From: a virus
Lineage: Duplodnaviria; Heunggongvirae; Uroviricota; Caudoviricetes
IMG/VR virus record: IMGVR_UViG_643348545_000010
Length of the DNA stretch: 16,207 nt
Strand: one strand, 5' to 3'
In this document: positions 11,486 to 11,909 of the stretch, one piece after another
Layout: each line of letters begins with the position of its first letter
How positions within the stretch are numbered: position 1 is the stretch's first letter
Program-made: the position numbers and the translations under genes
The notes under the pieces: model-generated
Seen by the model: the letters and a program-made list of their open reading frames with translations, nothing else
What the model was told of the DNA's origin: nothing
Databases searched by the model: none

Positions 11486-11746
11486 TTATTCCCCGATAGC
11501 GTGACCTGATAAGCCGTTAATCTTCTCTGATATGCTCTCTATTTTGCTGGTTGAACTATCCAGTAATTCAGAAACGGCTAATATTAATCTTGCAGTTGAT
11601 TCATCGCGTTCATTATTCACCAGCGACTGAAGCCACATATTCATTACTTCGTTTGCTGCGTTGTTTAAAGATATTGCGCTGTTGGCAAGGCTTCTTAATT
11701 CACTGGTCGCCAGTTTATTATTTTTCATAGCGTTTAAATCTCTCAT
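11486..11746 (-). CDS. Hypothetical protein (about 86 aa), Asn/Ser-rich, AT-rich codon usage
   Basis: ORF in an AT-rich segment; start ambiguous (ATG 11746 or 11728). Confidence 0.45.
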   Translation of the reverse strand: MRDLNAMKNNKLATSELRSLANSAISLNNAANEVMNMWLQSLVNNERDESTARLILAVSELLDSSTSKIESISEKINGLSGHAIGE

Positions 11747-11909
11747 CAATTAACCACAGCGCAACACTTCCTGACAGTTTTGCCAGAAGGCCAGCTAATG
11801 CGGATATATCATCATCATTTAATTTATCAGGGTACACCTCAAGAAGGCGGCAAATAATTTCTGTCTGGTGCGCACGTTCAGCGGCTTCGTGTAATGTAAT
11901 TTCCTTCAT
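11718..11909 (-). CDS. Hypothetical protein (63 aa), AT-rich
   Basis: ATG 11909 with GAGGTG SD 6 nt upstream, overlapping the upstream stop (TAATG). Confidence 0.5.
   Translation of the reverse strand: MKEITLHEAAERAHQTEIICRLLEVYPDKLNDDDISALAGLLAKLSGSVALWLIDERFKRYEK

Follow-up and report, generated by a model that had tools for sequence, protein, structure and literature searches.

We analyzed a 16,207-nucleotide stretch of viral DNA (IMG/VR record IMGVR_UViG_643348545_000010), which we refer to as the window, and concentrated on an AT-rich block of small overlapping genes at its positions 11486 to 12094. Judged by its gene content, the window is a capsid-forming phage-inducible chromosomal island (cf-PICI), a phage satellite of Escherichia coli. 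The block consists of three genes, called p61, p63 and p80 in accordance with the lengths of their products. They lie between a region with a C4 RNA and Icd-like genes and a DUF4222-primase gene pair, and they occupy a slot whose content is exchanged among related islands. We tentatively regard their products as accessory effectors that act early on the host or on phages.

Organization of the cassette and its surroundings

Genes were assigned from open reading frame (ORF) calls, from Pfam and PHROGs matches and from the annotation of close relatives. In minus-strand order, the features that surround and include the cassette are as follows.

12544-12741, minus strand: Icd-like ORF A, 65 aa (NF033153, E=1.3e-17; gene calls in identical relatives)
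12464-12513, minus strand: a1/b1 target of the C4 RNA (Rfam RF03163; borderline, with 46.8 bits against a gathering score of 46.7)
12309-12396, minus strand: C4 antisense (immunity) RNA (Rfam RF01695; 69.1 bits against a gathering score of 45)
12087-12257, minus strand: Icd-like ORF B (NF033153 phage_ICD_like, E=2.8e-13, at residues 121-163 of a long ORF)
11909-12094, minus strand: p61, 61 aa, GTG start (phrog_3672)
11718-11909, minus strand: p63, 63 aa, ATG start (phrog_1478, E=1.4e-33)
11486-11728, minus strand: p80, 80 aa (phrog_5796)
11181-11480, minus strand: DUF4222 gene, 99 aa, isoelectric point (pI) 9.9 (PF13973, E=5e-23)
9436-11184, minus strand: primase/helicase gene (D5_N and DUF5906), 40% identical to P4 alpha over 432 aa

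A position between immunity genes and primase had been proposed from the sequence alone, and it is confirmed by the C4 RNA, the a1/b1 target and the two Icd-like ORFs directly upstream of the cassette. The gene chain on the minus strand runs from alpA, farther upstream, to the Icd-like genes, p61, p63, p80, DUF4222 and the primase. The stop codon of Icd-like ORF B and the start of p61 overlap by 8 nt (GTGCTTAA). The p61 stop and the p63 start overlap by 1 nt (TAATG) and are preceded by GAGGTG, and p63 and p80 overlap by 11 nt if p80 starts at 11728. The p80 gene ends in ...GGG GAA TAA, so that the DUF4222 Shine-Dalgarno sequence (GGGGAA) is located in the last codons of p80, and the DUF4222 ATG follows 5 nt on. 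Finally, DUF4222 and the primase gene overlap by 4 nt. Judged by this arrangement, in which each gene overlaps or abuts the next and has its Shine-Dalgarno sequence inside the preceding gene, the chain from Icd-like to primase is translationally coupled. Expression of the small genes would therefore depend on both transcription and translation of the Icd-like gene. A search for promoter signals in the cassette gave one weak site, where 2.5 are expected by chance, and no minus-strand terminator was found in the cassette.

The block had originally been described as a pair of overlapping genes of 63 and about 86 aa. Both ORFs are present, but the second most likely encodes 80 aa, and the block includes p61 as a third gene, so it is a unit of three genes and not of two. 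The second ORF can be read as 11486-11749 (87 aa, from TTG), from the ATG at 11746 (86 aa) or from the ATG at 11728 (80 aa, MKNNKL...). The last is the most likely start, because a GAGAGA Shine-Dalgarno-like motif lies 10 nt upstream of it, because it is the RefSeq start in relatives, and because nearly all homologues have the 80-aa form. The product was also said to be rich in asparagine and serine, as is indeed the case (13 Ser and 11 Asn in 86 residues).

All three small ORFs are genuine protein-coding genes. Nei-Gojobori estimates of dN/dS (the ratio of nonsynonymous to synonymous substitution rates) between diverged alleles from related loci are 0.26 for p61, 0.43 for p63 and 0.23 for p80, compared with 0.28 for DUF4222 and 0.08 for the primase. 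By these estimates, the small ORFs are under purifying selection that is weaker than that on the primase.

The compositional contrast noted originally was borne out by calculation. The GC content of 11486-11909 is 40.6%, compared with a mean of 50.9% (standard deviation 4.7%) for 424-nt segments, which places it at the 3.3rd percentile. The GC content at third codon positions is 0.33 in p63 and 0.39 in p80, compared with 0.57 in the primase gene and 0.57-0.66 in structural genes; therefore, the contrast exists at synonymous sites, and amino acid content is not its sole source. The low-GC block spans about 11302-12094, thereby including p61 (GC 42.5%), and is one of four such stretches, the others being 1-560, 9021-9543 and 14420-15208.

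An exchangeable slot with alternative cassettes

Contexts of relatives, which are designated L001, L003 and so on, were sampled by exact-protein look-ups, and boundaries were determined by pairwise BLASTN. In L004 and L007, the DNA of DUF4222 and the primase is 95% identical to that of the window, yet unrelated or highly diverged genes are found in the slot. For L004, L007 and L015, homology breaks at window positions 11495-11498, which is 3-4 codons ahead of the p80 stop. On the far side, the boundary of homology is at 12085-12087 (the end of Icd-like ORF B) or at 12559 (the end of Icd-like ORF A). Thus delimited, p61, p63 and p80 fill a recombination slot, bounded on one side by the conserved 3' end of Icd and on the other by the ribosome-binding site of DUF4222. 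The following contents were found in it.

p61-p63-p80: the window, L001 and L025-L050
p61-p63-p73: L003 and L052
Single 75-aa gene (p75): L004
p86-p73b-p77: L007 and L015-L024 (1372 places; the majority allele)
p61 alone: L008, from E. albertii

The slot has at least five cassette types, and that of the window is a minority allele. A p80-like gene belongs to every type except the one in L008. All of the alternative cassettes are AT-rich, with GC contents of 0.32-0.45; therefore, low GC characterizes the slot as such and does not point to a single recent import. The original prediction had taken the compositional contrast as a sign of separate horizontal acquisition. The part of that idea that stands is that the genes constitute a distinct, exchangeable cassette, but AT-richness that is common to all cassettes is no mark of a recent foreign import here.

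Of 5426 complete E. coli genomes, 152 have the full cassette of the window, and 283 have parts of it; the window-type cassette was found at 289 places, with full length at 152 of them, and the copy in O157:H7 is 98.6% identical. DUF4222 loci occur at 1977 places, in 1481 of the 5426 genomes (27%).

Identities of p61, p63 and p80 to their counterparts in the window are discordant among islands, for example, 67/84/69%, 67/82/95% and 95/80/33%. Therefore, recombination also occurs between the three genes, and the cassette is itself mosaic. A p80 that is 100% identical is found both beside D5_N/DUF5906 primases and beside DUF927 primases, and these two primase types share only their first ~117 residues. 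Residues 1-117 of the primase (window about 10832-11184) match phrog_2850 as a separate module, with a homology break at ~10832 and ~93-97% DNA identity to the DUF927-type islands L001 and L028.

The encoded proteins

AlphaFold2 predicts helices at residues 6-25 and 32-61 of p63 (predicted local distance difference test score, or pLDDT, 80) and at residues 2-35 and 43-76 of p80 (pLDDT 85), so both proteins are predicted two-helix hairpins. Apart from p61, the slot proteins are acidic, with pI values of 4.2-5.3 (5.2 for p63), and the DUF4222 protein is very basic (net charge +10.5).

The PHROG families of p63 and p80 have no assigned function. Pfam scans gave no match for p61, p63 or p80, NCBIfam scans gave none for p63 or p80, and PADLOC-DB gave none for the three small proteins or DUF4222 at E values up to 1. 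In a sequence profile search of the PDB, no match had an E value under 0.3. Rop-like, WXG100-like and Gam-like readings were rejected as unsupported by fold searches. For the WXG100/ESAT-6-like proteins, EsxB, CFP-10 and PE25 appeared at Foldseek E values of ~2, and the turn reads N-N-E-R-D-E with no W-x-G.

The proteins of 80, 77, 75 and 73 aa represent one diverged family, in which p75, p77 and p80 are mutually 22-37% identical. Its conserved features are a tryptophan (W32) and an acidic hairpin tip, N-E-R-D, and its 80-aa and 77-aa subfamilies are ~25% identical overall. The family is narrow: when 1.84 billion representative proteins were searched exhaustively by HMMER with a p80/p77 profile, only 15 clusters emerged, and the family does not occur within any larger protein that would be informative. 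In addition, tblastn searches with p61, p80 and p77 found no match among 50,697 phage records. Shortened or fused p80 forms occur in some E. coli islands, namely 72 aa (L057 at 3182-3400 and L060 at 565-783), 50 aa (protein P0065) and a 103-aa fusion, with protein P0059 also noted. These forms suggest occasional gene decay.

For p63, 43 homologues were found, nearly all in Escherichia or Shigella. Temperate phages of Klebsiella have a 52%-identical homologue as the second gene of an early-left operon beside a CI-type repressor gene, and no p80-like gene follows it. In L005 and L006 (KPP5665-2 and ST512-KPC3phi13.5), this homologue has 62 aa, is located at 5001-5189 and adjoins a gene for a CI/LexA-type repressor. 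It also overlaps by 8 nt a 104-aa gene (33% GC) with the doubtful annotation "recombination-related exonuclease." The p63 family thus consists of phage-type early genes, and the p80 family of satellite-specific hairpins.

The C4 RNA and Icd-like region

Both the C4 RNA and its a1/b1 target are located between Icd-like ORFs A and B, so that tandem Icd-like genes flank the RNA in the window. In this island, the expression of the Icd-like gene is a step downstream of a P1-type C4 antisense RNA. C4/CI-type RNAs in Gram-negative PICIs have been noted in earlier work. We rejected C4 gating as a general rule, because many relatives with the same cassette have no Rfam C4; it applies to this island.

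Direct reading of the sequence indicates that the ATG at 12257, with a GGAG Shine-Dalgarno sequence before it, is the probable true start of Icd-like ORF B, giving a product of 56 aa. Annotation pipelines lengthen it to 154-168 aa (ORF 12087-12593, minus strand), across the C4 RNA gene. The long N-terminal extension of the "Icd-like protein" is probably an annotation artefact, because the C4 RNA and the a1/b1 target fall inside its N-terminal part.

Relatives vary in this region. A single Icd-like gene with no C4 RNA at the gathering score is found in islands of the EcCIEDL933 type and in several other relatives, L004 has two C4 copies and an isrK-like RNA, and L008 has one C4 RNA and isrK. 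Sequence comparison thus indicates that the immunity region is itself highly mosaic.

A functional hint from ECOR61

A possible function is suggested by the work of Silas et al. (bioRxiv 10.1101/2023.04.06.535777), in which the phage accessory protein Orf24 triggers death of ECOR61 cells via a "prophage-encoded" locus of six linked genes, including an Icd-like gene and a primase gene. Supplementary File 5 of that report places Tn5 suppressors of orf24-triggered death in three genes on QOYT01000045.1: two hypothetical ones, spanning 8940-9132 (192 nt) and 9131-9317 (186 nt), and an Icd-like one spanning 9309-9675. In length, in order and in the overlaps of 1 nt and 8 nt, these genes exactly equal p63, p61 and the Icd-like gene of the window. 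The six ECOR61 genes would then equal Icd, p61, p63, p80-like, DUF4222 and primase. One difference is that the ECOR61 Icd-like ORF is annotated with 366 nt, compared with 198 or 465 nt in sampled relatives. The Icd-like protein that was hit by transposons is described as having a long N-terminal extension, and this extension may include a regulatory RNA.

The suppressor list includes no insertions in the primase gene, which is roughly tenfold larger (10.1101/2023.04.06.535777). On that account, we argue that the hits in small genes are not simply polar on the primase. The original proposals for this position included helper-interference or anti-defence cargo, which may be right; the screen lends indirect weight to an involvement in growth arrest triggered by phages.

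Possible roles of the cassette

The proteins p63 and p80, which are probably small, soluble, acidic hairpins, most likely bind another protein, rather than acting as enzymes or DNA binders. Our preferred interpretation, to which we assign a probability of roughly 0.4, is that the small proteins are accessory effectors, produced early and targeting the host or phages, and that, with Icd, they aid growth arrest or take-over after derepression. In the mechanism we propose, an incoming or induced phage would derepress the island, and the Icd-like protein and the small proteins would then contribute to growth arrest or take-over. Provided that p63 and p80 function as effectors, the allelic cassettes would reflect diversification at the host/phage interface.

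Several observations weigh against the effector interpretation. The homology of the ECOR61 hit genes to p63, p61 and the Icd-like gene, and with it the link to that screen, is deduced from length, order and overlap alone. Moreover, all six ECOR61 genes, including the primase gene, were needed to rebuild a weak effect in a laboratory strain, and the authors named the Icd-like protein as the likely effector (10.1101/2023.04.06.535777); p63 and p61 may matter through polarity or coupling only. Foldseek searches with both models against the PDB, and with p80 against viral models, gave no match at E<=0.001, and only generic helical hairpins appeared, at E>0.1. A C4 RNA was not detected at the Rfam gathering score in the same-cassette relatives L001, L003, L035 and L044, which include the EcCIEDL933 type. 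Also, in nearly all islands a p80-like gene is the neighbor of DUF4222, and a role linked to replication would explain this just as well.

In such a role, which we consider somewhat unlikely, p80-like proteins and perhaps p63 would be replication accessories that modulate DUF4222 or the N-terminal primase domain and might, for instance, adjust copy number, as Cnr (ORF106) does in P4. The p80-like gene is directly upstream of the DUF4222-primase pair in almost all sampled islands, its 3' end holds the DUF4222 Shine-Dalgarno sequence, and its acidic product would meet a very basic neighbor. Moreover, the cassette, DUF4222 and the first ~117 primase residues move jointly into DUF927-type primases, and the gene order in P4 is alike, with small ORFs and cnr before alpha. 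The case of L008 can be read in two ways: in this sole island without a p80-like gene, the C-terminal tail of DUF4222 is divergent too, but the island replicates, or at least persists, without any such gene. A replication role is also difficult to reconcile with the lack of co-variation, given that DUF4222 and primase DNA of 95% identity is accompanied by p75, p77 or p80 despite the low identity among these three. Furthermore, the protein sequences do not resemble P4 Cnr (DUF5375), ORF151 or epsilon, and the origin iterons are located elsewhere.

Alternatively, the products might be helper-directed antirepressor or derepression proteins that bind the repressor of a resident helper prophage and switch the prophage on, with alleles matched to different repressors. 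The position of the genes resembles c4-icd-ant of P1 and cI-epsilon-orf151-cnr-alpha of P4, and small, acidic, fast-diverging products with alternative alleles in one slot are what this idea would lead one to expect. We nonetheless judge it improbable, given that no similarity exists to epsilon ("Derepression," PF25738) or to Ant-type domains and that, in the literature, it is the helper that induces PICIs of this type and not the reverse. Very improbable, in our estimation, is that the ORFs are mere relays whose functionless proteins are by-products of coupling, or of protection from polarity, between the Icd-like gene and the DUF4222-primase pair. The unbroken overlap chain from Icd to primase, the replaceable content of the slot and the occasional truncation of p80 (72 aa in L057 and L060, 50 aa in P0065) would suit such relays, but dN/dS values of 0.23-0.43 reveal selection on the protein sequences, and the N-E-R-D tip and W32 are kept across the 80-aa and 77-aa subfamilies at ~25% identity. 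Coupling does not call for this set of genes either, as L008 couples p61 to DUF4222 over a 39-nt gap and L004 uses one slot gene.

Toxin-antitoxin-like cargo, in which p63 would be toxic and p80 neutralizing or the reverse, had been among the original proposals for this position, and we now find it scarcely credible. Small, overlapping genes are compatible with it, and the ECOR61 insertions lie in the p63-sized gene with none in the next gene, as expected for a needed neutralizer. However, no promoter or terminator of their own was found for the two genes, which are coupled to neighbors on both sides. They also do not obligately co-occur: L004 and islands of the L015 type (1372 places) have a p80-like gene but no p63, Klebsiella phages have a p63-like gene but no p80, and L008 has neither. 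Their allele identities are discordant, searches of Pfam, NCBIfam and PADLOC yielded no matching family of toxins, antitoxins or defence proteins, and neither predicted model, each a plain two-helix hairpin, shows a DNA-binding fold. We therefore infer that p63 and p80 are not a self-contained toxin-antitoxin pair.

A more specific form of the effector interpretation, which we regard as unlikely, is that, within an abortive-infection switch borne by the satellite, the p61-p63-p80 cassette supplies the specificity and acts as the effector. If so, the p86-p73b-p77, p75 and p73 cassettes would represent different trigger specificities, and about one-quarter of E. coli genomes would hold an undescribed, allele-diversified defence module inside a PICI replication operon.

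Other features of the island

The ED1a chromosome (CU928162.2, 1746979-1755278) matches window positions 7181-15480 at 100% over 8300 bp; on the basis of this match, the window is taken to be the ED1a island or an identical copy. Features outside the cassette region that bear on the identity of the element are as follows.

14990-16207, minus strand: tyrosine integrase gene, extending to the window end
14427-14615, minus strand: alpA (PF05930, E=5e-18)
9194-9426, strand not assigned: iteron cluster, probable replication origin (GGGTAGAGG / CCTCTACC repeats)

The gene alpA is the master activator gene of Gram-negative PICIs. As is characteristic of cf-PICIs, the int, alpA and primase genes have the same direction, the origin is placed after the primase gene, and the element has its own capsid, protease, portal and terminase genes. 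The minus strand also holds SSB and PerC genes and a block encoding major capsid, prohead protease, portal and large terminase proteins. No tail genes were found among the window ORFs annotated through relatives. The layout of the EcCIEDL933 cf-PICI, as published, resembles that of the window.

The GGGTAGAGG / CCTCTACC iterons are present in at least 10 copies, in both orientations, in an AT-rich gap directly downstream of the primase gene, and the cluster is the probable replication origin of the island. We considered the AT-rich cassette as the origin and ruled it out, given that the iterons are at 9194-9426 and the cassette has no such repeats. The lowest GC content of the window (33-37%) is found at 14420-15208, between alpA and the integrase gene and reaching into the 3' part of the latter; this is presumably the alpA/int regulatory region.

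Between 12767 and 14369, minus-strand ORFs of 314 aa (12767-13711) and 245 aa (13632-14369), neither of which has a Pfam match, overlap small plus-strand ORFs. Of the latter, 13753-13926 is Arc/YlcI-YnfO-like, and 12795-13247 matches phrog_6522. Gene sets in this region differ by annotation pipeline, and RefSeq relatives show an "ash family protein, partial."

Comparison with known systems

The left operon of P4 has the order orf88/vis, cI RNA within eta/kil, epsilon, orf151, cnr (orf106) and alpha. The island resembles it in having an AlpA/Vis-like gene upstream, an antisense immunity RNA of the C4/CI clan, small overlapping ORFs (with 8-nt overlaps) and a D5-type primase gene at the end. However, p61, p63, p80 and DUF4222 lack detectable similarity to epsilon (PF25738), ORF151 and Cnr (DUF5375/PF17345): BLASTP against the small P4 proteins gave chance-level matches only, and the Pfam models recognize the P4 proteins but not those of the window. 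The island also differs from P4 in having its own capsid, protease, portal and terminase genes. Should the small proteins turn out to regulate replication, P4 Cnr would have its PICI counterpart in them.

The immI region of P1/P7 (c4, icd, ant) shares with the window a C4 RNA with an a1/b1 target, an Icd-like ORF and an overlapping next gene. In the window, however, icd is followed by p61-p63-p80-DUF4222-primase, with no Ant homologue (no Pfam match), and C4 is undetectable in many relatives that have this cassette. The ECOR61 locus is alike as a six-gene unit with an Icd-like gene and a primase gene, in which suppressor genes of 192 and 186 nt have the sizes of p63 and p61. The match suggests that the small genes may take part in cell death triggered by phage; if this is confirmed, PICIs would gain a defence function beyond packaging interference.

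The closest characterized element is EcCIEDL933, the cf-PICI prototype from O157:H7, which carries the same cassette (98.6% nucleotide identity; p80 protein 100% identical), the same Icd-p61-p63-p80-DUF4222 order and the same type of capsid module. It differs in its DUF927-type primase body, its single Icd-like gene and the absence of a detected C4 RNA. The literature on EcCIEDL933 characterizes alpA and the packaging genes, not the small ORFs. DUF4222-primase islands occur in 27% of complete E. coli genomes and include this model cf-PICI, and a slot with alternative AT-rich cassettes offers a testable place for satellite functions aimed at the host, the helper or competing phages. The type of element, the C4/Icd region and the genes themselves, as "hypothetical proteins" in databases and in the published model island, were already known; to these, our analysis adds the definition of the slot and its alleles, the rejection of the toxin-antitoxin reading and the link to the ECOR61 screen.

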